Shown here: positions 47,818-58,625 of the stretch, piece after piece
How the letters are laid out: each line of letters begins with the position of its first letter
Numbering within the stretch: position 1 is the stretch's first letter
NCBI GenBank assembly: GCA_038142525.1
Contig: JAYQKE010000006.1
Coordinates: 42,273 to 106,272 of the forward strand
Source: Rickettsiales bacterium
GTDB taxonomy: Bacteria > Pseudomonadota > Alphaproteobacteria > Rickettsiales > UBA1997
Direction of reading: 5' to 3'
Length of the DNA stretch: 64,000 nt
The notes under the pieces: model-generated
The model's database searches: none
What the model was told of the DNA's origin: nothing
Seen by the model: only the letters and a program-made list of their open reading frames with translations
Made by a program: the position numbers and the translations under genes

Positions 47818-48866
47818 ATGTTAGAAAAACTAGTTCGGGATAAAATTGCTCAAGAAAATTATATCACTATTAAAGATTTTATCAATCTATCACTTTTTCA
47901 TCCAGAATTTGGTTATTATATTAATCAAAATCCTATTGGTAAAGATGCTGATTTTACCACCTCTCCTGAAATTTCACAAATATTTGGTGAAATTATAGCT
48001 TTTTTTCTGATTGATTTTTGGCAAAGAAAATATCCAAACCAACAGATTAATTTAATTGAAATGGGTGCAGGTCAGGGCACCTTAATGTCAGATTTTCTAA
48101 GAATTGCTAGGCAAATACCAGCATTTTACCAAAATATCAATATTCATATAATTGAAATTAATCAAAAATTAATCAAAATTCAGCAAAATAGATTGAAAGA
48201 TTTTGATATTAAATGGTGGAACAATTTTGATGAATTTAGTCAAAATTGTCAGAATTTACCAATCTTTTTTATTTCAAATGAATTATTTGATTGTTTTGCT
48301 ATTGATCAATTTATTCTAGAAGATGATATTTGGTATCAAAAAGTTTTAATTTTAGAAGAAAATCAATTAAAATTTGATAAAATTAAGGTAAAAACCGATA
48401 TTAATTTATCAATTCCTAAAGAATTTCAAAAGAATCTTAAAAATGGCTCTATTTTTGAAAAAAATATTGCAGCTGAAGAATTTATAAGAAAATTATCAGA
48501 AAAAATATCTCAAAATAATGGCATTGCTATAAATATTGATTATGGTTATTATGAGAATTTTTTAAAGATACATTACAATCAGTAAAAAATCATAAATTTA
48601 ATAATATTTTAGAAAATATCGGCAAATCTGACTTTACATCTTATGTTAATTTTCATCAATTAGCAAAAATCTCAATGCAAAATAAATTAAATGTTAATTT
48701 TATGACCCAAAGAGAATTTTTATTATCAAATGGTTTAGAATTAAGGCATAAAATTCTAGTGCAATCGGCAAAAAAAGATCAGGATAAGATAAGTTTAGCA
48801 ATTGATAGGCTCATTGATAAAAATAAAATGGGCGATATATTTAAGGTGATGGTTAATTATAGATAA
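47818..48866 (+). CDS. MidA/NDUFAF7-family SAM-dependent methyltransferase (frameshift near 48560)
   Basis: GYY, DFTTSPEISQIFGE, EMGAGQG, SNELFD, IDYGY, MGDIFKV. Confidence 0.9.
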
Positions 48867-48870
48867 ATTA

Positions 48871-49216
48871 TCAATTTGAAGCTAAAATTCTATTTTTACC
48901 TTTCATTGCTAATTGAATTTCATCCATAGTTCTAATTTGTGATAATTTTATATCTTTATTATTAAGATATTTATCAGATAAAATCCTCAATCTTTCAGGT
49001 CTGGTAAGATAAACCCATTCAATTTTAAGAGTCTTAACTTCATCTTGTAAATATTCTATTTCTTCATTGATATTATCTAACTTAACCTGTAAATTACCTG
49101 TTTTAAATTGAATAAAAAATAGCGAACAAATTCTTTGCCAAAACAGTCAAGAATAATATAAAATTGAAAAAATAAATTTTATATAATTTGTCTAATTTTA
49201 AATATAAGAAATTCAT
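48871..49216 (-). CDS. ftsL: Cell division protein FtsL (not in ORF track; frameshift near 49115-49135)
   Basis: TM segment then coiled coil ending LKIEWVYLTRPERLRILSDKYL (alphaproteobacterial FtsL signature); directly downstream of rsmH. Confidence 0.82.
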
Positions 49217-49228
49217 AATTAATATAAT

Positions 49229-50161
49229 TTAATTTTTAATCGCTACACGCATTCTTGCAGATCTTGCCCTAATATTTTCTTTAATCTCTTCTTTGGTAGG
49301 TTTTATGGCTTTTAGTTTTTTACAAGAGAAGGGATATTTTTCACTATCAATTTTTACAGGATTTTGAGCATATTTAGATCTAGCTCTATTTTCATAATCA
49401 CTATTTTGTTTGATAAAATATTTAACTATTTTATCTTCCAAAGAATGAAAAGAGACTATAATTAATTTCCCGTCTTTTTTTAAAATATCTTTACTATCTT
49501 TGAGAATTTTTTCTAATTGACCTAATTCATCATTAACAAAAATTCTAATGGCTTGAAAAGTTTTAGTAGCAGAATCAATTTTTGAATGACCTCTTTGGCC
49601 AATAGCCTTTTTAATAATGTCGGCTAATTCTAAAGTTGTTTCAATTTTTTTAATTTTTCTATTTTCTACAATTTTTTTGGCAATTTTGCGTGACCTTCTT
49701 TCGTCACCATAATTATAAATAATATTTGCCAATTCTTCTTCAGCAGTATTATTAATTACCTCAAAAGCAGTTAATTTTTGCTCCTGATTCATTCTCATAT
49801 CTAATTTTGCATTTTTTTGGAAAGAAAATCCTCGATCTGATTGATCAATTTGCATAGAAGAAACTCCTAAATCTAAAATTAAAGCATCAAATTTTTGACC
49901 ATCTAAATGCTTTTTAATATCAGCAAATTCACTAGAAATAAAATTAAAGCGATCACCATATTCTTTTTTAAAATTATTGGCAATTTCTATGATATTTTTA
50001 TCACGATCAAAGGCTAAAATATTACAATTTGCAGCTTCTAAAATTCTACGGCTATAACCACCAGCACCAAAAGTACCGTCAATATATCTCTTACCATTTT
50101 CAGGTTTTAAATATTCTATAATTTGATCAATTAAAACTGGTTTATGTATCATTTTTACCAC
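49229..50161 (-). CDS. rsmH: 16S rRNA m4C1402 methyltransferase
   Basis: HKPVL, DGTFGAGGYS, DLGVSSMQID, SFHSLEDKIVK, RARSARMR. Confidence 0.97.
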   Translation of the reverse strand: MVKMIHKPVLIDQIIEYLKPENGKRYIDGTFGAGGYSRRILEAANCNILAFDRDKNIIEIANNFKKEYGDRFNFISSEFADIKKHLDGQKFDALILDLGVSSMQIDQSDRGFSFQKNAKLDMRMNQEQKLTAFEVINNTAEEELANIIYNYGDERRSRKIAKKIVENRKIKKIETTLELADIIKKAIGQRGHSKIDSATKTFQAIRIFVNDELGQLEKILKDSKDILKKDGKLIIVSFHSLEDKIVKYFIKQNSDYENRARSKYAQNPVKIDSEKYPFSCKKLKAIKPTKEEIKENIRARSARMRVAIKN

Positions 50162-50603
50162 TTAATCTTAAAATATTTCTTTTCTCTTTAGCTCTAATTT
50201 TAGCAGAAGAGGCATAGTCAGAGAATTTTTCTGGTTGCCAAATTTCAAAAGTTTTACCTTTACCAACAAAAATTGCCTTATCATTTAAATCGGCAATAGA
50301 AATTAAATTTTCTGGCAAAATAATTCTACCATCTTGATCCATAGAAATTTGCATCGATCCAGCAAGAATTGTTGTGGCAAATGAGTCGCGATCTTCGCAA
50401 AAAGGATCGAGATCATCAATTGCATCACTTAATTTTTTAATTCTCTCAATATTGCAACCCTCAATACATGGATTAACGAATGATTCATATAAAATAACTC
50501 CAGAAAAATTTTCATCAGATAAATATGGGCGAAATTGAGCAGGTACGGAAACTCGCCCCTTTTTGTCAATTTTGTTAATGAATGTTGATAAAAACAAAGC
50601 CAT
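50142..50603 (-). CDS. mraZ: Division/cell-wall cluster repressor MraZ
   Basis: KIDKKGRVSVPAQFR and DQDGRIILP repeats; FEIWQP. Confidence 0.96.
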   Translation of the reverse strand: MALFLSTFINKIDKKGRVSVPAQFRPYLSDENFSGVILYESFVNPCIEGCNIERIKKLSDAIDDLDPFCEDRDSFATTILAGSMQISMDQDGRIILPENLISIADLNDKAIFVGKGKTFEIWQPEKFSDYASSAKIRAKEKRNILRLSGKNDT

Positions 50604-50617
50604 ATGCCAATATATTC

Positions 50618-50662
50618 CGGAATTTTATGGGATTTAACGGTTTAATATGGAATATTGTGGGA
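50618..50662. promoter_or_regulatory. Probable MraZ-binding repeats
   Basis: Five YGG-centred units at exact 10-bp spacing (CGGAA, TGGGA, CGGTT, TGGAA, TGGGA) immediately upstream of mraZ. Confidence 0.65.
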
Positions 50663-50815
50663 GAATACTATAAATAAGTCAAGAAGTTTATAAGAAGAAT
50701 GTCCAGTTGTGTCACATGGGAGAACCTGATTTAAAGGTCGGAATAAGTTATTTAATTTGATTGAGATCAAAATTTTATAATTTATAATATCATTTTATAA
50801 ATTATAAGAATTACA

Positions 50816-51040
50816 ATGTTTGAACAGACCTTTAAAAATATAGATAATATTCTTCATAAAGATTCTGATTGCGGTAACGAGCTTGATTATGTTGAACAAA
50901 CTTCTTGGCTATTATTTTTAAAATATTTAGATGATTTAAGAGATTTTGTTGATCAAAAATTATTTCCTTATCTTAGAAATTTCAAAGAAAATACTAGCAA
51001 CCCAAACATAGTTGAATATAAAATTGAAGAAATATTATGA
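50816..51040 (+). pseudogene. N-terminal remnant of a type I R-M methyltransferase (HsdM)
   Basis: MFEQTFKNIDNIL..D..C..ELDYVEQTSWLLFLKYLDDL...KLFPYL..FK...EYKI; no catalytic motifs. Confidence 0.78.
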
Positions 51041-51591
51041 AAATAATAGATCAAAAAAGCTTAGAAAATGCTTATAAATTATTTGAAACAAATGATATTG
51101 ATAAAATTGAAATTGGCACAATCAAAGGTTTAAAAGATATTCATAAATATTTATTTAATAATTTATATGATTTTGCAGGACAAGTAAGAGATAAAAACAT
51201 CTCAAAAGGCAATTTTAGATTTGCAAATTGCTTATATTTGAATGAAATTTTACCAAAAATTGAGCAAATGCCACAAAATAATTTTAAAGAAATTATCGAA
51301 AAATATGTTGAAATAAACATCGCCCATCCATTTATGGAGGGTAATGGTAGATCAATGCGAATCTGGCTAGATATGATCTTAAAAAAACAGCTTAAAAAAG
51401 TAATTAATTGGCAATTAATTGATAAAATTCTCTATCTACAAGCAATGGAGAGGAGTCCAATTAATGATTTAGAATTAAAAACATTAATTGAATCGAACCT
51501 AACTGACAAAATTAATGATAGAGAGATAATTTTTAAAGGAATTGAACAATCTTATTATTATGAAGGGTTGGAAAAGGAAGAAGATGAATGA
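51037..51591 (+). CDS. fic: Fic protein adenylyltransferase (class III-like, C-terminal autoinhibitory helix)
   Basis: [16 protein letters not shown] catalytic motif; C-terminal SYYYEG. Confidence 0.92.
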
Positions 51592-51652
51592 TATAAGGCA
51601 AAATTGGGAGATTGAAATTATTTTAGTTGCTTGAGTATTAAATAATCCGAAT

Positions 51653-51769
51653 TGGCTGGGATGGCAGGATGACGTCATCGCTTCGCTTGACTAGCAAATT
51701 ACTCAGAATTTTTTCAAAATTCCTGCGTCATTTGTCGAACCTAACGGTCCTCATGCCTGCACTTTTACA
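51653..51769 (-). repeat. tRNA-Gln-3'-end structured repeat, distal copy (117 bp)
   Basis: Identical to 55547-55663 except for one base; on the minus strand ends ATCCTGCCATCCCAGCCA, the tRNA-Gln 3' end. Confidence 0.92.
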
Positions 51770-52481
51770 GTAAAATTGAGCTTGTATAATTAATTGATGT
51801 TAGAATTATTATGTCGAATTGGTCGCCCATAATTGACATTATTTGAACCAAATATCAAAAAGAATTAAGACTTTTATATTTGCAAGTTAAATAAGGGAAC
51901 CTCTGAAAAACCAATTATCTAATTTATAGATTTGAAACTGTTTAATTTTGTTATTTTTGCCAAAGTTTAGCAAAGTTATTTTATAAAATTTTGTTTGAAT
52001 TTATTTGATAAAAATAGCCAGAAAAGCTTGATTTATCTAGCTTTTTTGCTTATTATTGATATATTAAATTCAAATAAAATATATAATTATGGCAACCCAG
52101 CAATCATTTTTTTCATTAGCAATTTCTGGTAGAAAATTAAGAGCGGAGAAGTTTCTTAATCAAATGACGGATATTATTCCATGGCAAAGATTGATTGATA
52201 AGATAGAGCCTTTTTATCCTAATGGTACTAGTGATTACGGTGGCAGGAAGGTGACAGATTTATTATTAATATTTAAGATTCATTTGTTACAGCAGTGGTT
52301 TGGTCTTAGTGATCCAGCTATGGAGGATGCTATATATGATAGAATAAGTTTTCAAAAATTCTTAAATATTGATATTGGTATTGATAATGTTCCGGATGAG
52401 ACTGTGATATTGAGATTCCGTCATTTATTGGAAAAGCATAATTTATCGTCGATTATATTTAACGAGGTAAATTCATATCTT

Positions 52482-53862
52482 AAGACCTTTGCATAAATCA
52501 TTGATTTTTCTCTAATTTTCCTTCAGAATATTTTTTTGAAGGAAATTTTTGGAAAAAACTGTATTTTTTGATATTTTTGACAATTTATTGGCAAAAATAT
52601 TGGTTATTTCGGTGTTTTTGTGGTATTCTTTGTTGTTTTGTGGATTTTGGACACAATTATCCTAATTCCAGTTGTTTTGGTGGCACCAATGCTTTTATTT
52701 TATTAACTGCTTTGAGTAGATTTAAACAAATAGCTTTTTAGAGTAAATTGAGCATTTACTTTTTTTGTTGTAAAATAAGAAGCTTTATTGAATTTAAATC
52801 TTCTTTTTAGAGTTCCAAAAGATTGTTCAACAATAAATCTTCTTTTTGATACAGCTTTATTAAATCTTTTTTGCCATTTGGTCATGGGTTTTCCTTTTGG
52901 CTTTTTATACATCAATCTGGTTTTGATGCCTTTTTTTCGTAAGATATCTCTATTTCCTTTAGAATCATAACCCTTATCTCCAGAAAATTTATCACAATCC
53001 GTTACCATATCCTCCATTTGATTAATCTCAGATTGATTGGCTGGAATTGTTTTGGTTTTATTGATAAATCCTTCTTCATCTGTTGTGGCAAATGATTTAA
53101 ATCCAAAATGATATTTATTTCCCTTCTTTAGCCAAGTGGCATCTGGATCTGCCGATTCTGATTGCTCAATAGTTAAGTTTCCTATTTTATTATTAGAAAT
53201 TTGATCTTCATTCCTGTCTTTAGTAATATTATCTTCTATTGTCTTTGTCCTATTTGGTCTAGAATTAGACTCAATCAATGTAGCATCTATTACTGCAAGA
53301 TTAGCTTTTTTAACTTTGAGATTATTCTCTGATAATTGATTATTAATCTCAGATAATAATTTATCTAACAAATCTCTTTCAATTAATTTATTTCTGAATC
53401 TACAGATAGTTGAATGATCTGGCACCTTATCACTAATATCAAAGCCACAAAATGATATAAAATCAAGCCTTACCTTTACAGCATATTCTAATTCTTCATC
53501 GCTTAAACTATTCCATTGACCAAGTAGAACAAGCTTTAACATAGATATTTTATCATAAGATTTTCTACCTCTGTCGCTATTTTCATTAAAGTCTTTTTTG
53601 TGAATCTTGACCAAATAAGATCTCAACCTCTCCCAATTTATTAATTTATCTAACTTTAACAATTTACTGTCATTTTTTAATCTCTCTTGAATGGAAATAG
53701 AAGCAAAAGTAACCATAATTTATTAATATTTCATTATAATAAACAGCAATAAAGCTAGATAAATACTAGCTTTATTGCTGTTTTATTCAAGAAAAAATTG
53801 ATGAAATTAAGAAAAAACCAAGAGAAAGTTAGGGAAATTTTAATGATCTATGCAAAGGTCTT
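52482..53862 (-). mobile_element. Second IS5-family element (IS1106-like ends) nested in IS5 copy 2
   Basis: TIRs AAGACCTTTGCATA(A/G)ATCATT; ATCTT duplicated at 52477-52481 and 53863-53867. Confidence 0.92.
52703..53716 (-). CDS. IS5-family transposase (late frameshift near 52735)
   Basis: LLGQWNSLSDEELE, PDHSTICRFRN, IDATLIES, DPDATWLKKG, GDKGY, RFIVEQSFGTLK. Confidence 0.93.
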   Translation of the reverse strand: MVTFASISIQERLKNDSKLLKLDKLINWERLRSYLVKIHKKDFNENSDRGRKSYDKISMLKLVLLGQWNSLSDEELEYAVKVRLDFISFCGFDISDKVPDHSTICRFRNKLIERDLLDKLLSEINNQLSENNLKVKKANLAVIDATLIESNSRPNRTKTIEDNITKDRNEDQISNNKIGNLTIEQSESADPDATWLKKGNKYHFGFKSFATTDEEGFINKTKTIPANQSEINQMEDMVTDCDKFSGDKGYDSKGNRDILRKKGIKTRLMYKKPKGKPMTKWQKRFNKAVSKRRFIVEQSFGTLKRRFKFNKASYFTTKKVNAQFTLKSYLFKSTQSS

Positions 53863-54799
53863 ATCTTGAAGAGAATGATCTTTTGTTGAAGGAGGATACG
53901 ATAACTGATGCGACATTAATATCTGCTCCAACTAGTACAAAAAACAAGAAGAGGAAAAGGGACCAAGAGATGTCTTCTACCAAGAAAGGGAAGAATTATT
54001 ATTTTGGCATGAAGTCTCATATTGGTGTGCAAACTAAGGGTAAGCCAATTATTCATTCTATTGTCACGACGACAGCTAAAGATCATGATTCTACTAAAAC
54101 AGAGGAGTTATTACATGGTGATGAAACTTCTTTATTTGGTGACAAGGCCTATGATGATAAGGCAATAAAAAGATTTTGTAGGAATCACAATATATTTTAT
54201 GGTATAACCAATAGAGCTAAATCTAACAAAAAACTTTCAAATAAGCAATTAAAAAAAAAAAAGAGGAATAAACAATTTTCATCAGTTCGAGCTAAAGTTG
54301 AACATCCATTTCAAATTATAAAGCATCTTTGGGGCTATAGAAAGGTTAGATATAATGGTTTACAAAAGAATACTAATCAATTACAAATGCTATCATCCCT
54401 TGCTAATCTCTATATGGTTAGAAAAATACTACCAAATACAGCGTAACAAGGGATAAATGTGTCTAATTTAGCCAAAAATGGTAAAATTAGACAAGAAACT
54501 AGAGAAATTACCACAAATAATGCCTAAATTTGGATAAAGATTGTTAATTTTTAACAAAATTAGCAATCTTTATCAAATTATAAAAATTTTTTCTGAAAAA
54601 TGAAAAAATAGACAAAATTAAATAGGAAAATCAGAGGTTCCTAAGAGCTAAATTTTAAATAATAAGATCAATTATGAATTCTAATTTATTAAGAATTAAA
54701 ATTATTTGATAGCAAAGATATTGATAAAATTGAAATTGACACCATTAAAAGCAGGGCTGGCGGATTATTCAAAACATAGTTTATAAATTACACCTTGTG

Positions 54800-55141
54800 T
54801 TAATTTTTGATAAATTTTAATTTGGCAATATTATTTAAAATGTCTTTTTTATTTATATTACCCATTTCATTTTTTGAATAAATAGAAATTACATATAAAA
54901 TATCATTTACTTTTAAGTAATATATTATTCTAAATCCAGATGACTTACCCTTATTAATTGATGAATTTTTTATTCTTGCTTTAAATATAGGAAGCTTAAT
55001 TCCCTGTATTTTATCAGATTTAATTTCTTTATTTTCTGAAATATCTTTAATAAAAAAATCAATATCTTGTTTAAAATTTTTATATCTTTTTGCTAGTTTT
55101 TTAACATCTGATTTTGCAAGATCTGATAAAATAACCTTCAT
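54800..55141 (-). CDS. RelE/ParE-family toxin
   Basis: AKSDVKKLAKRYK...KARIKNSSINKGKSSGFRIIYY...ISIYSKNE. Confidence 0.85.
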   Translation of the reverse strand: MKVILSDLAKSDVKKLAKRYKNFKQDIDFFIKDISENKEIKSDKIQGIKLPIFKARIKNSSINKGKSSGFRIIYYLKVNDILYVISIYSKNEMGNINKKDILNNIAKLKFIKN

Positions 55142-55144
55142 ATT

Positions 55145-55423
55145 TTATTCAATATCTTTTTTTACATCTTCCCAATCATGACCTTCAAATTGATTACTTT
55201 CAATTTGTTTAGCATATTCTTCAATAACTGGCTTTAATATTAAATCTGCCTCATCTTCCAAAATATCATCACTATAAGAAATGTTTTGTTTCTCAATTTT
55301 AACTTTAGCATATTTATCAATTGCAGTAATTGCCATATCTCTCATTGTCTTACCACTCATAACAGAAAGAGATTTTAATGTTTTGTGCAAAGAATCTGGT
55401 AAATCTATAGTTAATCTAGTCAT
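55145..55423 (-). CDS. Ribbon-helix-helix antitoxin
   Basis: MTRLTIDLPDSLHKTLKSLS...GKTMRD; acidic C-terminus ending WEDVKKDIE; 3 bp upstream of the toxin. Confidence 0.8.
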   Translation of the reverse strand: MTRLTIDLPDSLHKTLKSLSVMSGKTMRDMAITAIDKYAKVKIEKQNISYSDDILEDEADLILKPVIEEYAKQIESNQFEGHDWEDVKKDIE

Positions 55424-55451
55424 ATTATTTGAATTTTAATTAATAATTAAC

Positions 55452-55490
55452 ATTATACCTTAAAAAAGTAAAAAAGTAAATACTTTTTTA
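55452..55490 (-). promoter_or_regulatory. TA promoter -10 box and operator repeats
   Basis: TATAAT on the minus strand at 55452-55457; AAAAAAGT twice plus inverted ACTTTTTT at 55462-55489. Confidence 0.5.
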
Positions 55491-55546
55491 TATTTAAAAT
55501 AAACTTACCTTAGAAATTGTTCTTAAAACTGAATAGCTATCCTAAT

Positions 55547-55663
55547 TGGCTGGGATGGCAGGATGACGTCATCGCTTCGCTTGACTAGCAAATTACTCAG
55601 AATTTTTTCAAAATTCCTGCGTCATTTGTCGAACCTAACGGTTCTCATGCCTGCACTTTTACA
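55547..55663 (-). repeat. tRNA-Gln-3'-end structured repeat, proximal copy (117 bp)
   Basis: 47 bp downstream of tRNA-Gln; minus strand folds into the T-stem GCAGG/CCTGC closing three hairpins, then CATCCCAGCCA. Confidence 0.92.
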
Positions 55664-55710
55664 AATAAGTATCAGTTTTATGAAATGATCAAGTAAAATT
55701 ATCATCGAAT

Positions 55711-55785
55711 TGGCTGGGATGGCAGGATTCGAACCTGCGCATGACGGGATCAAAACCCGTTGCCTTACCACTTGGCCACATCCCA
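55711..55785 (-). tRNA. tRNA-Gln (anticodon TTG), CCA encoded
   Basis: TGGGATGTGGCCAAGTGGTAAGGCAACGGGTTTTGATCCCGTCATGCGCAGGTTCGAATCCTGCCATCCCAGCCA folds into a canonical cloverleaf. Confidence 0.97.
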
Positions 55786-55862
55786 TTAAGAAGTGTGATA
55801 GTAGAATAATCCACAAATCGGATGAAGTTTCAAGGGTAAAAGGCAATTAAATTAAAATTTGT

Positions 55863-55883
55863 CCTTACCACTTGGCCACATCC
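55863..55883 (-). repeat. 21-bp duplicate of the tRNA-Gln 5' end/D-arm
   Basis: CCTTACCACTTGGCCACATCC identical to 55763-55783, offset exactly 100 bp. Confidence 0.85.
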
Positions 55884-56067
55884 TAAAAATATATAATTAT
55901 CATTTAATAACAAATGAAATAGATCGAGATAGATTCCTATTTTTTTTAGTTAAAGTCAAGAAATAATTAAAAAATATCAGATAATATCACTTTTATCTTT
56001 TAATTTAAAAAAAATATCTAACAATTAAATATGGTAAAATTTTATCATGATAATTTTTTTTTAATAT

Positions 56068-56478
56068 ATGAAAATAATCAGCTATTTATTAATATCTATT
56101 TCATTATTTTTAACGACATCTTGTTATAATAACATTTTTAATAAAGAAGGTGTTAAGAAACAGAAATTTTTATCAAATCATAGTGATATACCATTATTTA
56201 AAGATTTTGAAATTGTTGAAAATTAAACTTTAGATTTTGATTCACCCTCTGGTAATATATCAAATATTACTTATAGATCATCATCAAAAATAGAAGATAT
56301 TGTAAAATATTATCAAGAGAATTTGCCTAATTTGGGTTGGAAAGAAATTGATAAATCAACAAATTATACTTCTTTTTCAAGAGGTGGTGAGATATTAAAA
56401 ATTTCTTATGATGAATTAGATGGATATTTGGATGGATATATTATGGTTAAATTTTTTATTGTAAGGGATAATGTCTAG
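56068..56478 (+). CDS. Hypothetical lipoprotein (not in ORF track; in-frame TAA at 56224-56226)
   Basis: MKIISYLLISISLFLTTSC lipobox; DIPLF...*TLDFDSPSGNI...YYQENLPNLGW...FSRGGEILKI resembles a conserved alphaproteobacterial family; overlaps the fadJ start. Confidence 0.65.
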
Positions 56479-58625
56479 GGATATACAGTTAAAAATTAAA
56501 AATGATATCGCTTATTTAGTTTTTAATTTAGCTAATGAAAAAGTTAATAAATTAAGTGAGAGAATATTAGTAAAATTTGATAATATATTAGAAAGGGTTG
56601 AAAAAAAATCCAATTTGAAGGCTCTGGTAATTTCTAGCACTAAAAAAGATATTTTTATTGCAGGTGCCGATATTAATGAAATTAAAGATATTAATAGTAA
56701 AAAACTTGCCCTTAAAAAAGTCACTGAAGCTCAAAATATTTTATTTAGATTGGAAAATCTTCAAATACCAACAATTTCTTTGATTAATGGTGCTTGTCTT
56801 GGTGGTGGGTTAGAGCTGGCCTTATCTTGTAAATATAGAATTGCCGTTAAAAATCCTAAAACAAAATTGGGATTACCAGAAGTAAATTTAGGTATATTTC
56901 CTGGCTTTGGCGGTACTCAGAGATTGCCAAGATTAGTTGGTTTAGAGCAGTCATTAAAAATGATACTTGCTGGTAAGCCAATCGATGCCATCAAATCTTA
57001 TAAAATTGGTTTGGTTGATACAATTATTAATGAGGAATTTCTTGATGATGAAGTTGAACAATTTTTGCAAGAAATATCTAATAATTTAGATAATAAATTT
57101 TTAAGGAGAAGAGATAAATTTTCAAAAAAAAGATTTGTAATTGAAACTTTATTTTTAAAAAAGCATTTAGTTTTTTATTTTGCTCGCAAAAATTTAATCA
57201 AAAAAACAAAGAATTTTTATCCAGCACCTTTAGTCGCTTTGAAGGTTATTAAAGATACTTATAATAAGCGTAACAAAATAGATGGTTGTAAGATAGAAGC
57301 TAAAGAATTTTCAAAATTGGTAATAGGAAAAATTTCAAAAAATTTAATTCATATATTTTTTGCTAGCGAGGAAGTTAAAAAGAAATATCAGATGAAGGGC
57401 TGCAAAAATTTCTAAAGCTGGCTTATTAGGTGCTGGAATTATGGGTGGTGGCATTGCCTTTATCTTAAGTAAAATTGATATCAGAGTTAGGATGAAGGAT
57501 ATCAATAATGCCGCAATTGCTCTTGGTTATAAACAATGTTTTAAAATTTATAATCAATTATTAAAAATCAGAAAATTCTCTAAAAGTGCAATATCTCAGA
57601 AGATGAATAAAATTGATCATGATTTAACTTATGACAATCTTAAAAATTCTGAAATTATAATTGAGGCTATAATTGAAAATATCGATATTAAGAAATCCAC
57701 CTTTACTGAATTAGAAAAACATGTAAATAAAAATGCTATTATAGCTAGCAATACATCTTCTCTTTCAATTGATGAAATGTCAAAATCCTTAAAATATCCA
57801 GAAAGATTTGCTGGTATGCATTTTTTTAATCCAGTTAATAGAATGCCATTAGTTGAAGTAATAAGAGGTAAAAAGACGAGTCAAAAAACTATTGATAAGA
57901 TAGTCTCTCTTACTCTTGATATGGGTAAAACCCCTATAGTTGTTCAAGATGTTGCTGGATTTTTAGTTAATAGAATTTTATTACCATTTATCAATGAAGC
58001 TGGATTTTTATTAGAAGAAGATGGTGATATTAAAAAAATTGATAAAATTCTTGCTGAATTTGGAATGCCTATGGGACCATTTATTTTATCTGATATTGTG
58101 GGAATAGATGTGGGGCACAAGGTTGCCGTTAGTCTTTTTGAAGCTTATGGCAGAAGAATGAAGGTTTGCCAGATATTGTCAAAAATCTCTGGAGATAAAA
58201 AATTACTTGGCAAAAAATCTAATTTAGGATTTTATAAATATAGTAAATCTGGCAAAAATTTAGGAATTAATTCAGATATTAAAAATAAGCTAGATAAGAT
58301 TAGAATTTCTCGTAAAATTTCTGTTAATAAATTATCAAAAGAAGAAATTATTGAAAGATCAATTTTAATAATGGTTAATGAGGCTAGTAGATGTTTGGAA
58401 GAGGGGGTTGTAGAATCTGCAACTGAACTTGATATTGCTATGATTTTTGGTACTGGTTTTCCGCCATTTCGTGGTGGCTTATTAAAATATGCTGATGTCA
58501 TTGGTCCAAAAAGAATAGTTGAAAAACTAAGAAAATATCAAAAATCTTCCGGTGTAAGATTTACGCCAAGTAAATTATTATTACAAATGGCAAAAAATAA
58601 TAAAAAATTCTATGACAAAGGATAA
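56471..58625 (+). CDS. fadJ: Fatty-acid oxidation complex alpha subunit (enoyl-CoA hydratase / 3-hydroxyacyl-CoA dehydrogenase), frameshift near 57395
   Basis: FIAGADINE, CLGGGLELAL, GLPEVNLG..PGFGGTQRLPR, GAGIMGGGIA, ASNTSSL, GMHFFNPV, GTGFPPFRGG. Confidence 0.9.

Follow-up and report, generated by a model that had tools for sequence, protein, structure and literature searches.

tRNA-linked repeats (TLRs), a family long known from E. coli, are small structured elements found immediately after a tRNA or 5S rRNA gene and oriented like it; each finishes with a copy of the 3' end of that gene. Arrays of one to five tandem units are usual, and are classically explained by unequal crossover between the tail copies. 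The 178-bp elements distal to tyrT and tyrV in E. coli (rttR; Rfam RtT, RF00391) share a number of features with the locus described here: a position directly downstream of a tRNA and in its orientation, a 3' end copied from that of the tRNA, the boxes AUGAGAACC and GGUUCGA(C), pairing of the 5' strand with the tail in a closing stem, a multi-hairpin interior, and tandem units with a spacer. In the E. coli small RNAs RrA, RrB and RrF, which are TLRs after the 5S rRNA genes of rrnA, rrnB and rrnD, the 3' end likewise repeats that of the gene upstream. According to PMC8144298, the last 18-19 nt of each TLR equal the upstream gene's 3' end, the copy is proposed to be an RNase E processing signal, and RrA, RrB and RrF have a terminator on each side and, in vitro, bind Hfq and CsrA via GGA motifs. 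E. coli TLRs, and likewise members from Pasteurellaceae, are expressed as discrete RNAs, according to PMC8144298 and PMC4986893.

Two other systems resemble the locus. Integron arrays (attI, attC, IntI) are also anchored at one fixed site and have structured imperfect palindromes with a variable centre at their unit ends; in integrons, the folding of one strand matters. In tRNA-targeted islands and cis-mobilisable elements, foreign DNA sits between direct repeats of a tRNA 3' end, as it does here, and the tRNA-Gln locus described below also varies between species of the genus.

The tRNA-Gln locus and its repeats

The window is a 64-kb stretch of DNA from a marine Rickettsiales bacterium; coordinates refer to the forward strand, and the tRNA sense is the minus strand. 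A preliminary description had given the order, in the tRNA sense, as tRNA-Gln, a first repeat, an antitoxin-RelE pair with a fic remnant and a later IS, a second repeat, fic with an hsdM remnant, and mraZ. This order and the parse of the repeat were reproduced by the sequence, ARAGORN and a repeat search, and Pfam confirmed the gene content. The features are listed below from the tRNA end; E-values of model R1, a covariance model described in the next section, are rough, and part of its bit scores comes from tRNA-derived letters.

55861-55883, minus: 23-nt copy of the tRNA-Gln 5' end, lying about 75 nt ahead of the gene (sequence)
55711-55785, minus: tRNA-Gln(UUG) gene with encoded CCA, the anchor of the array (ARAGORN, ttg; Rfam tRNA model, 69.6 bits)
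55664-55710, minus: spacer S, 47 nt, from the tRNA to the first unit (sequence)
55547-55663, minus: TLR unit R1, with closing stem, three hairpins and 18-nt tail (repeat; fold; model R1, full length, 32.2 bits, E = 2.4e-8)
55145-55423, minus: ParD-like antitoxin gene (Pfam PF09386, E = 4e-5, 24.4 bits, below the curated cut-off of 27.3)
54800-55141, minus: toxin gene of the ParE/RelE family, belonging to a type II toxin-antitoxin pair (Pfam PF05016, 24.5 bits, cut-off 23)
54699-54749, plus: short piece of another fic gene, N-terminal part (51 nt, 86% identity with 51076-51126)
51896-54642, plus: outer IS5-type element (Pfam DUF772 and DDE_Tnp_1; inverted ends in the sequence)
52476-53861: inner IS5-type element interrupting the outer one, transposase 52703-53716, minus (Pfam)
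51771-51822, minus: degenerate second spacer S', consisting of CCA and the start of a spacer, just upstream of R2 (local alignment with S)
51653-51769, minus: TLR unit R2 (98% identity with R1 across the 125-nt repeat; model R1, full length, 29 bits, E = 2.9e-7)
51037-51591, plus: fic gene, convergent with the repeat (Pfam PF02661, E = 8.4e-13)
50816-51040, plus: HsdM N-terminal remnant (Pfam PF12161)
50142-50603: MraZ gene (Pfam)

tRNA-Gln(ttg) is the sole tRNA that ARAGORN finds in the window. The direct repeat is 125 nt long (51645-51769 and 55539-55663, 3,894 bp apart), and a 23-nt block with the tRNA 3' end is present in three copies (51648-51670, 55542-55564 and 55706-55728). In both copies, the final stretch consists of the tRNA's last 18 nt and the adjoining 5 nt of flank; in R1 the tail, CCA included, is at 55547-55564. 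The sole difference within the 117 nt is an A at 55643 and a G at 51749, and, as the preliminary description had pointed out, the G could still pair, as G-T. The four-way junction of the preliminary description is the predicted minimum-free-energy fold with RNA and DNA parameters alike, and its computed stability is only modestly above that of shuffled sequences (RNA, z = -1.51, 8 of 200 shuffles equally good; DNA, z = -2.51, 2 of 200). The closing stem is weak in the window (5 + 4 pairs), and the window copies ranked 10-12 of 31 when cognate and foreign tails were compared.

A consensus scan placed a promoter-like site for the ParD-like gene at 55480-55452. The toxin also matches PF06296 (23.4 bits, below the cut-off of 27). 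The transposase of the outer IS is split into two parts, 52089-52496 and 53850-54446; high-depth contigs in which 52475 is joined to 53862 represent an outer IS without the interruption, which is present elsewhere.

Misassembly, which would have undermined the preliminary description, is unlikely, since the junctions are covered at about the depth of the flanks and are seen in two further contigs of the same species. In contigs from DNA runs, the unique junctions 54615-55573 and 51719-51916 had depths of 34.6 and 25.5, respectively, with flanks at about 31; the two same-species metagenome contigs are 99.8% identical and share the window junctions. The runs and metagenome contigs used for this comparison may include the window's own source sample.

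Membership in the TLR/RtT family

Model R1 was trained on 13 elements from other proteobacteria, located behind genes for tRNA-Arg, -Ser, -Pro and -Gln(CUG), together with L097, which has no tRNA call nearby; the training set contained nothing from E. coli or from the window's family. R1 and R2 are its only matches at E <= 1 in the 64-kb window. The tRNA-Gln gene itself gave no match, and the reverse strand of R2 scored 2.6 bits. The same model matched all four E. coli tyrT/tyrV RtT units at full length (37-38 bits). It found 11 sites in E. coli K-12, the best three of which (52.9-55.2 bits), near 3.42, 4.04 and 4.17 Mb, we take, by their positions on the K-12 map, to be the 5S-distal TLRs RrA, RrB and RrF; if so, these belong to the same family as the window units.

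In contrast, the Rfam model RF00391 did not match the window copies at E <= 1 (10 kb searched) or E <= 10 (161 nt searched). Family membership therefore rests on our own model, and the window copies are to be regarded as divergent, reduced members. They lack about 31 model positions, corresponding to the CCCGAAGGG hairpin and the next hairpin, and the central arm is replaced by a hairpin that is also found in MITE-like repeats of the genome. Common to the window element and the RtT consensus are the AUGAGAACC box, GGUUCGA(C), a GCGAAGCGA-type hairpin, and AUCC with the cognate tail. Identity to the tRNA end extends over 23 nt in the window, where 18-19 nt is characteristic of TLR tails. The window units further differ from E. 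coli TLRs in their host, a marine Rickettsiales, in their tRNA, Gln, and in being separated by 3.8 kb of genes; in contrast to RrA, RrB and RrF, a consensus scan found no terminator-like sites flanking them.

The preliminary description had named findings that would count against it. One, that the repeat is a known Rfam family, holds in substance, as it is a distant TLR/RtT member, even though the RF00391 model itself does not reach it. Another, a MITE scattered independently of tRNAs, does not hold, as the full element is present in its own genome only at the two window sites. The relatives behind tRNAs of other proteobacteria that it had suggested exist: similar elements were found there.

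The relatives provide the evidence for structure. In their fold, 81.3% of cells are paired, compared with 30-50% when the partners are slid, and the covariation score of 0.345 (0.154 in shuffles) was reached by none of 500 shuffles. Helix 3 is 100% paired in the relatives, with six of its nine pairs changed on both sides. These many compensatory changes bear out the proposal of a structured single-strand element. G-T pairs are in modest excess over A-C pairs, 30 versus 15 in the window's family and other matches outside the training set and E. coli, and 25 versus 18 in the training set. The expected co-variation with the neighbouring tRNA was also observed: the tail tracks tRNA identity across Gln, Pro, Arg, Ser and Tyr genes. 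We conclude that the window repeats are new, divergent and reduced members of the TLR/RtT family behind tRNA-Gln, as shown by a profile independent of E. coli and the window's family, with their structure supported by covariation in the relatives, and that they probably do not represent a new cassette-capture system.

A probable tandem array interrupted by genes

Tandem units are the rule among the relatives: three plus one in E. coli, two each in G007 and L085, four in G077, and three (by tail copies) or four (by the model) in L105. The related metagenome contig L120 reads tRNA-Gln, S, unit, S, partial unit, with no genes between; spacers homologous to S are present in this contig and in G004. 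In the five relatives' loci that carry tail copies, all of these lie within 300 nt of tRNA-Gln, and most arrays are bare tandems without cargo. Of three more widely spaced pairs checked elsewhere, two were linked to separate tRNA genes and one ran into a contig end.

It is reasonably probable, in our judgement, that R1 and R2 are units of a TLR array behind tRNA-Gln and not dedicated cassette-capture sites. R1 would be co-transcribed with tRNA-Gln and, because its tail copies the tRNA 3' end, could be trimmed by tRNA-processing nucleases to a CCA-ended RNA of about 117 nt. The suggestion in the preliminary description that the repeats are processing sites fits the E. coli relatives as presented in PMC8144298. 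A consensus scan of this strand found no terminator-like site between tRNA-Gln and R1. In two RNA runs, contigs extend across the tRNA, S and one repeat unit, which gives weak support for co-transcription, as RNA libraries may hold DNA; run data were used as assembled contigs throughout.

The ancestral order would have been tRNA-S-R1-S'-R2. The degenerate CCA and spacer start upstream of R2 are as expected of a former tandem; S and S' align with a score of 23, and scores as high came from 24 of 2,000 shuffled sequences and from 37 genomic windows out of 2,000. The 3.77 kb between the units (ParDE, the fic fragment and two nested IS) would have arrived later, at the unit boundary directly behind the R1 tail, either because the tail mimicked the tRNA 3' end that integrases classically target, and so served as a decoy, or because repeat copies recombined by homology. 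G002, from the same genus, is a second example, with genes sitting precisely at the tail of a TLR behind tRNA-Ser, and hints that the tail position is not random. Its junction tails resemble hybrids of a resident and a foreign core, and its duplicated segment comprises the tRNA end, the spacer and three quarters of a unit, compared with a whole unit in the window.

A simple late insertion leaves unexplained why the fic pieces are 86% alike beside repeats that are 98% alike. The same numbers are a difficulty for a plain segmental duplication of a block of spacer, TLR and fic, as they would require later homogenisation of the repeats. In that history, which would leave the TLR identity intact, the block then decayed, ParDE replaced most of one fic gene, and the IS landed upstream. 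The fic fragment next to R1 does have the orientation of the intact fic at R2, the first ~10 nt after CCA are similar at the tRNA, R1, S' and R2, and unequal crossover is the usual explanation of TLR tandems. The distance from tail to fic, however, is 54 nt at R2 and about 790 nt at R1, with ParDE between, and we regard the duplication as rather unlikely.

Proposed recombination at the repeats

The preliminary description saw in the locus an integron-like array of small cassettes stacked behind a tRNA. The results do not support this. A single interval has repeats at both ends: when filters were switched off, model R1 found no third copy above 10 bits between the HsdM remnant and mraZ. That interval is a patchwork of a toxin-antitoxin pair, a gene fragment and nested IS, and the short distances in the relatives, with the direct tandem of L120, speak against stacking. 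Unlike integrons, the window has no intI-like gene, and the usual state of the family is bare tandem units. The islet indeed lacks an integrase, as had been noted: no PF00589 match was found on the window's contig, the genome's five matches all being on other contigs. Nor was the proposed HUH nuclease found: no HUH (Y1) gene was detected in the islet, in G000 or in four other genus genomes searched, and across the family there is no association (Y1/HUH in 5 of 17 genomes with the repeat and 17 of 84 without, in a genome-list comparison).

In a sharpened form of this idea, TLR units would be folded single-strand att-like sites whose closing stem re-creates the tRNA 3'-end duplex, like CTX phage attP or integron attC, and small cassettes would enter and leave at the tails via a recombinase encoded elsewhere. 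Covarying helices, which need single-strand folding, are in line with this, and in several lineages changes in the 5' strand follow those in the tail (GCAGG/CCTGC in the window, GAAGG/CCTTC in G007 and G050, 10 pairs in E. coli). In the window and, independently, at tRNA-Ser of G002, foreign genes lie exactly between a tail and the next CCA and spacer. A single-repeat joint from 51649 to 55544 in contigs from two RNA runs would also agree with excision, but can be explained as assembly collapse across the 125-nt repeat. Against it stand the lack of a recombinase nearby, the single bounded interval, the predominance of bare arrays, the lack of association with Y1/HUH genes, and the outcome at the wider-spaced pairs. 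Moreover, the duplications in the two cargo cases have different limits, which fits homology better than a fixed crossover point. We give this reading little credence.

Very improbable is the possibility that the TLRs are scars of tRNA-targeting integrative elements, an attP arm with a displaced tRNA 3' end and no RNA function, resembling cis-mobilisable elements after tandem accretion, with the window one still carrying cargo. Three direct copies of the tRNA 3' end starting in the T-loop match the attL/attR layout that Williams reportedly described in 2002 for T-loop-type integration sites; the hybrid-looking G002 junction tails and the tyrosine recombinase gene found some 100 nt upstream of tRNA-Gln in G051 point the same way. 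Scars, however, would not keep conserved sequence and covarying helices in alpha- and gammaproteobacteria behind five tRNA identities, and elements also lie behind the sites that we take, from their K-12 positions, to be 5S rRNA genes, which are not known to be integrase targets. A normal attR has the T-stem 5' strand next to the loop, whereas about 90 nt lie between them in the window; in contrast to tRNA-targeted islands, the locus has no integrase at the tRNA-proximal end, and the repeat has a conserved structured body of about 95 nt, also where cargo is absent. The discrete RNAs from E. coli and Pasteurellaceae members, as described in the papers cited above, also disagree with scars.

Upstream of the tRNA-Gln gene, the 23-nt copy of its 5' end at 55861-55883 is found in contig L120 too, and is probably a decayed tRNA duplicate.

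Two repeat units behind tRNA-Gln

Behind the tRNA-Gln gene, two copies of a 117-nt unit, R1 and R2, share a gene-bearing stretch (the islet) with a toxin-antitoxin pair, gene fragments and insertion sequences. The order in the sense of the tRNA is as follows.

Features of the tRNA-Gln locus, in tRNA sense
55711-55785, minus: tRNA-Gln(UUG), the sole tRNA gene of the window
47 nt between tRNA-Gln and R1, tRNA sense: spacer S
55663-55547, minus: unit R1, 117-nt element, 47 nt past tRNA-Gln and on the same strand as the tRNA
After R1: ParD/ParE-RelE toxin-antitoxin pair
After the ParD/ParE-RelE pair: fic gene fragment, 51 nt
51896-54642, after the fic fragment: IS5-type element split by a second IS
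Between the IS pair and R2: non-coding DNA, ~130 nt
51769-51653, minus: unit R2, second copy of the 117-nt element
Past R2: intact fic gene and HsdM N-terminal remnant
Past the HsdM remnant: mraZ operon, the last part of the order

A repeat search returns R1 and R2 as a 125-nt direct repeat with 98% identity and a spacing of 3,894 bp. [quoted passage not shown] R2 has no tRNA gene of its own and is preceded by a degenerate 'CCA plus spacer'. Contigs from DNA runs cross both unique junctions with a depth close to that of the flanks, and the same junctions are found in two metagenome contigs of the same species. The junction depth and the two agreeing contigs make a misassembly unlikely, with the proviso that these data are perhaps not independent of the assembly. 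The repeat that the preliminary description placed behind tRNA-Gln is real. Within the nested IS (51896-54642), contigs at ~20-130 times the flank depth join 52475 to 53862, which corresponds to an uninterrupted outer IS and indicates that the sample holds multiple copies of each IS.

The first 23 nt of tRNA-Gln are copied at 55861-55883 (minus strand), ~75 nt upstream of the gene, and the sequence beyond could be a decayed tRNA. The same copy is present in L120, a related metagenome contig.

Relation to the tRNA-linked repeats of E. coli

The tRNA-linked repeat (TLR, or RtT) of E. coli is a unit behind a tRNA gene with a tail copying the tRNA 3' end, and it has the same boxes as the window units, yet the latter escape the Rfam model RF00391. 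[quoted passage not shown] The 178-bp repeats distal to E. coli tyrT/tyrV have the layout of the window's relatives and share their boxes (AUGAGAA-C, GGUUCGAC, a hairpin of the GCGAAGCG type, and AAUCC plus a tRNA-Tyr tail); this region is recognised as Rfam RtT at 133-137 bits.

A direct Rfam scan matched no family to the window repeats, and RF00391 gave no match at E <= 1 in 48000-58000, nor at E <= 10 on 51630-51790 (161 nt). The curated Rfam score of RF00391 is 45 bits, of which the window units fall short; as a control, four E. coli units scored 133-137 bits and an intermediate Kangiella element 33.7 bits. We built our own covariance model (model R1, not to be confused with unit R1) from an alignment of 13 elements, none of them from E. 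coli, that stem from gammaproteobacteria and from those alphaproteobacteria that do not belong to the window's family. It matches R1 and R2 over their full length at 32.2 and 29 bits, respectively, and these are its sole matches in the 64-kb window at E <= 1 (E-values of this model are rough owing to a short calibration). The tRNA-Gln gene gives no match. The four E. coli tyrT/tyrV units are matched over their full length at 37-38 bits, and E. coli K-12 contains 11 sites, the best three of which, at 3.42, 4.04 and 4.17 Mb, we take to be the 5S-distal TLRs. About 31 positions of the model are missing from the window units.

R1 closely follows a tRNA gene and is on its strand, as TLRs are behind tRNA or rRNA genes, and the window units end in a copy of the tRNA 3' end, as TLRs do with 18-19 nt of the upstream gene. 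TLRs come as 1-5 head-to-tail units per locus; the window has two, 3,894 bp apart, and L120 has them in direct tandem. We conclude that both window repeats belong to the TLR family, as members of a divergent and reduced form. For all its striking look, the 'tRNA half with an expanded T-loop' is an element of a known kind. Against the reading in the preliminary description, the element belongs in substance to a known Rfam family, although the Rfam scan of the units themselves is blank; it is not a scattered MITE. According to PMC8144298, TLRs have long puzzled students of the E. coli genome, and the window element is a new, divergent member of this enigmatic family. Our literature search on tRNA-linked repeats, a term that turned up in PMC8144298 and in an editorial (PMC9245011), returned nothing on Rickettsiales and nothing on gene insertion at such repeats.

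The fold proposed in the preliminary description is the minimum-energy fold of the window repeat with both RNA and DNA parameters, and it is modestly more stable than that of shuffled sequences (z = -1.5 for RNA, -2.5 for DNA). When the six-part structure is imposed on the 13-element alignment, 81.3% of cells are paired, compared with 30-50% when partners are slid. The covariation score is 0.345 versus 0.154 in shuffles, none of 500 shuffles scoring as high, and one helix is 100% paired with six of its nine pairs altered on both sides. The predicted helices of the TLR family covary in the relatives, and the structural description of the repeat was a good one that agrees with the RtT architecture. 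A strand test comparing G-T with A-C pairs gave a weak signal, and a test of cognate versus foreign tail pairing was too noisy to favour either side.

In G004, a genome of the same genus, tRNA-Gln is followed by a homologous 49-nt spacer, a homologous element with a different central arm, and then virB4 and citrate synthase genes; the tail lacks CCA, as does G004's own tRNA gene. Two further genomes of the genus, G002 and G003, share the gene order upstream of the locus and differ downstream of it. In other genera of the family, one or two units stand directly behind tRNA-Gln, with tails matching their own tRNA. Scanning one genome for each GTDB species with a motif, we obtained 44 loci; in at least 12 of these, the motif closely follows a tRNA gene and precedes a repeat of the 3' end of this tRNA. 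The tRNAs concerned are Gln and Pro in Rickettsiales MAGs, and Arg and Ser in gammaproteobacterial records or MAGs (among them Rheinheimera and an Algicola MAG). At more loci, including four Kangiella MAGs, the element adjoins a tRNA-Ser gene and failed a strict tail test. Variation of the tail with tRNA identity, a check proposed in the preliminary description, is borne out: the tail tracks the neighbouring tRNA over at least five identities.

At E <= 1e-3, our model finds the element in 17 of the 101 genomes that represent the window's family; at E <= 1e-4, it finds it in four of 151 sampled Alphaproteobacteria and in 46 of 151 sampled Pseudomonadota, the last with up to 20 copies in a single genome; the window's own genome is counted in each case. 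As indicated by these matches, the TLR family is far wider than the Rfam model sees, with a patchy spread. Tandem units without cargo are the rule among the loci examined; L120 (78% identity), for instance, has tRNA-Gln, spacer, unit, spacer and partial unit, with no insert in between. Tail tracking over tRNA identities, covarying helices and the wider family together provide a comparative data set for the question of whether the element acts as RNA or as DNA.

The central arm of the Rickettsiales units is of two unrelated types, one at loci L025, L120, L057 and L085 and the other in the window and at L076, L062 and L061. Each type is common to several genera, as though the arm were a swappable module; the first type was not detected in the window's genome. 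[quoted passage not shown] There, the 5' strand of a unit could thus pair with either the tRNA end or its own tail.

Transcription and processing

TLRs have been a riddle since 1978. PMC8144298 describes three 5S-distal copies as transcribed through terminator read-through, processed, and bound by Hfq and CsrA in vitro, and PMC4986893 describes RtT RNAs on Northern blots in Actinobacillus. Release of a discrete RNA from the tRNA or rRNA transcript is a mark of TLRs; at the window locus, contigs from two RNA runs extend across tRNA, spacer and a unit (being contigs, they carry no ends, strand or level). RNA cover is missing in parts between 55509 and 55544, a contig-derived gap that says nothing on RNA ends. 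Contigs from two RNA runs also join 51649 to 55544, the single-unit form; we give this joint little weight, as a fic transcript running into R2 antisense and a tRNA transcript running into R1 in sense may have been merged by the assembler.

A consensus scan found no terminator-like site between tRNA-Gln and R1. R1 would be transcribed together with tRNA-Gln, as a trailer, and its resemblance to the tRNA at the 3' end would lead tRNA-processing enzymes to cut it out, by analogy with RrB, for which PMC8144298 proposes the copied gene end as a processing signal. Copy number would change through recombination between tail copies of at least 20 nt.

Origin of the genes between the units

The preliminary description read the islet as an integron-like array of cassettes stacked behind a tRNA, with a recombinase acting in trans. 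The evidence is mostly against such an array, and an integron-like mechanism is not supported: relatives have bare tandems, the window has one bounded interval with patchwork cargo, and the islet has no recombinase. An integron has a recombinase gene beside the anchor and a site at every cassette end, whereas neither was found here. A Pfam scan of the 10 ORFs between 50142 and 58625 detected no recombinase, and the five PF00589 hits in the window's genome (Xer-like and three other recombinases) are all on other contigs. With filters off, our model finds only two units in 49500-56500 and none at the far end of fic/hsdM. The interval itself is a patchwork (ParD/ParE, fic fragment, nested IS) rather than a clean cassette. 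As to variation of cassette content between strains, two contigs of the same species carry identical junctions, and a single-repeat joint is seen in RNA-run contigs only, perhaps through assembly collapse. An HUH/Y1 partner was also rejected, as Y1 shows no enrichment in the family and was not found in the window's genome (87% complete) or in the four other genomes of the genus searched.

Wider-spaced pairs of units occur elsewhere. One genome, G361, has a Y1_Tnp gene between two units, the second of which is cut by the contig end. In G347 (locus L130, G347:C1, 656-5409) two blocks of matching layout, each a tRNA-Ser(GGA) gene with two units, surround four accessory genes (acetyltransferase, LysR, pirin, isochorismatase), with no recombinase present. 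The pair in G285 belongs to two distinct tRNA-Arg genes with one unit apiece. In the family-wide list, one recombinase lies beside tRNA-Gln, on the upstream side; this tyrosine recombinase gene (G051:C1:117364-117959, another genus of the family) ends ~100 nt upstream of the tRNA.

What speaks rather for an array is a second gene-bearing interval within the genus; the single-unit joint of the RNA-run contigs points the same way, with little weight. In G002 (locus L125, G002:C6, 3651-6538) a tRNA-Ser(GCU) gene, spacer and unit are followed by 2.4 kb with genes for a coiled-coil membrane protein and a Bro-N protein, and then by an inverted T-arm fragment and a degenerate tail. On the far side, 8 nt from the tRNA 3' end appear again, with the spacer and with a unit cut to three quarters of its length, so that the interval is flanked by a 158-nt repeat with 99% identity. 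In both the window and G002, foreign DNA begins right after a tail. The tRNA 3' end is a classical integration target, and the tails, being copies of it, may attract integrating DNA; equally, the intervals may stem from homologous crossovers. The duplicated segment has different limits in the window and in G002, which is easier to reconcile with homology than with crossover at one fixed point. Given the degenerate 'CCA plus spacer' upstream of R2, the simplest history is a tandem pair that was later split at the unit boundary, and the genes of the window interval would have arrived secondarily. The window 'cassettes' are ordinary mobile debris, and the practical message is a sobering one: a known kind of element with ordinary cargo.

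We consider it quite improbable that TLRs are folded single-strand attachment sites, whose closing stem rebuilds the 3'-end duplex of a tRNA or 5S RNA and at which a recombinase encoded elsewhere or of Xer type moves small cassettes behind stable-RNA genes. If this were true, a single Rickettsiales genus would offer two live cases, one at tRNA-Gln in the window and one at tRNA-Ser in G002. A tRNA-targeted island has an integrase gene inside it, beside the tRNA-proximal repeat; the Pfam scan of the islet found none there. A MITE has many copies scattered independently of tRNA genes, whereas the 1.93-Mb assembly has the whole window element at just two places, both at the tRNA-Gln locus, and it was rejected as a MITE or dispersed repeat. 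An attP site of a phage or integrative element was likewise discarded, a motif scan of viral contigs having returned two uninformative loci (a phage tRNA cluster and a contig end).

The central hairpin alone recurs in at least four MITE-like elements of the window's genome. These belong to a family of ~240 bp with terminal inverted repeats (C4:27910-28125, C15:204985-205312 and others, L003-L006), whose terminal motif has 32 occurrences at up to 2 mismatches. Some copies bear the same long hairpin as the central arm of the window repeat, and one lies just downstream of a Xer-like recombinase gene on C4.
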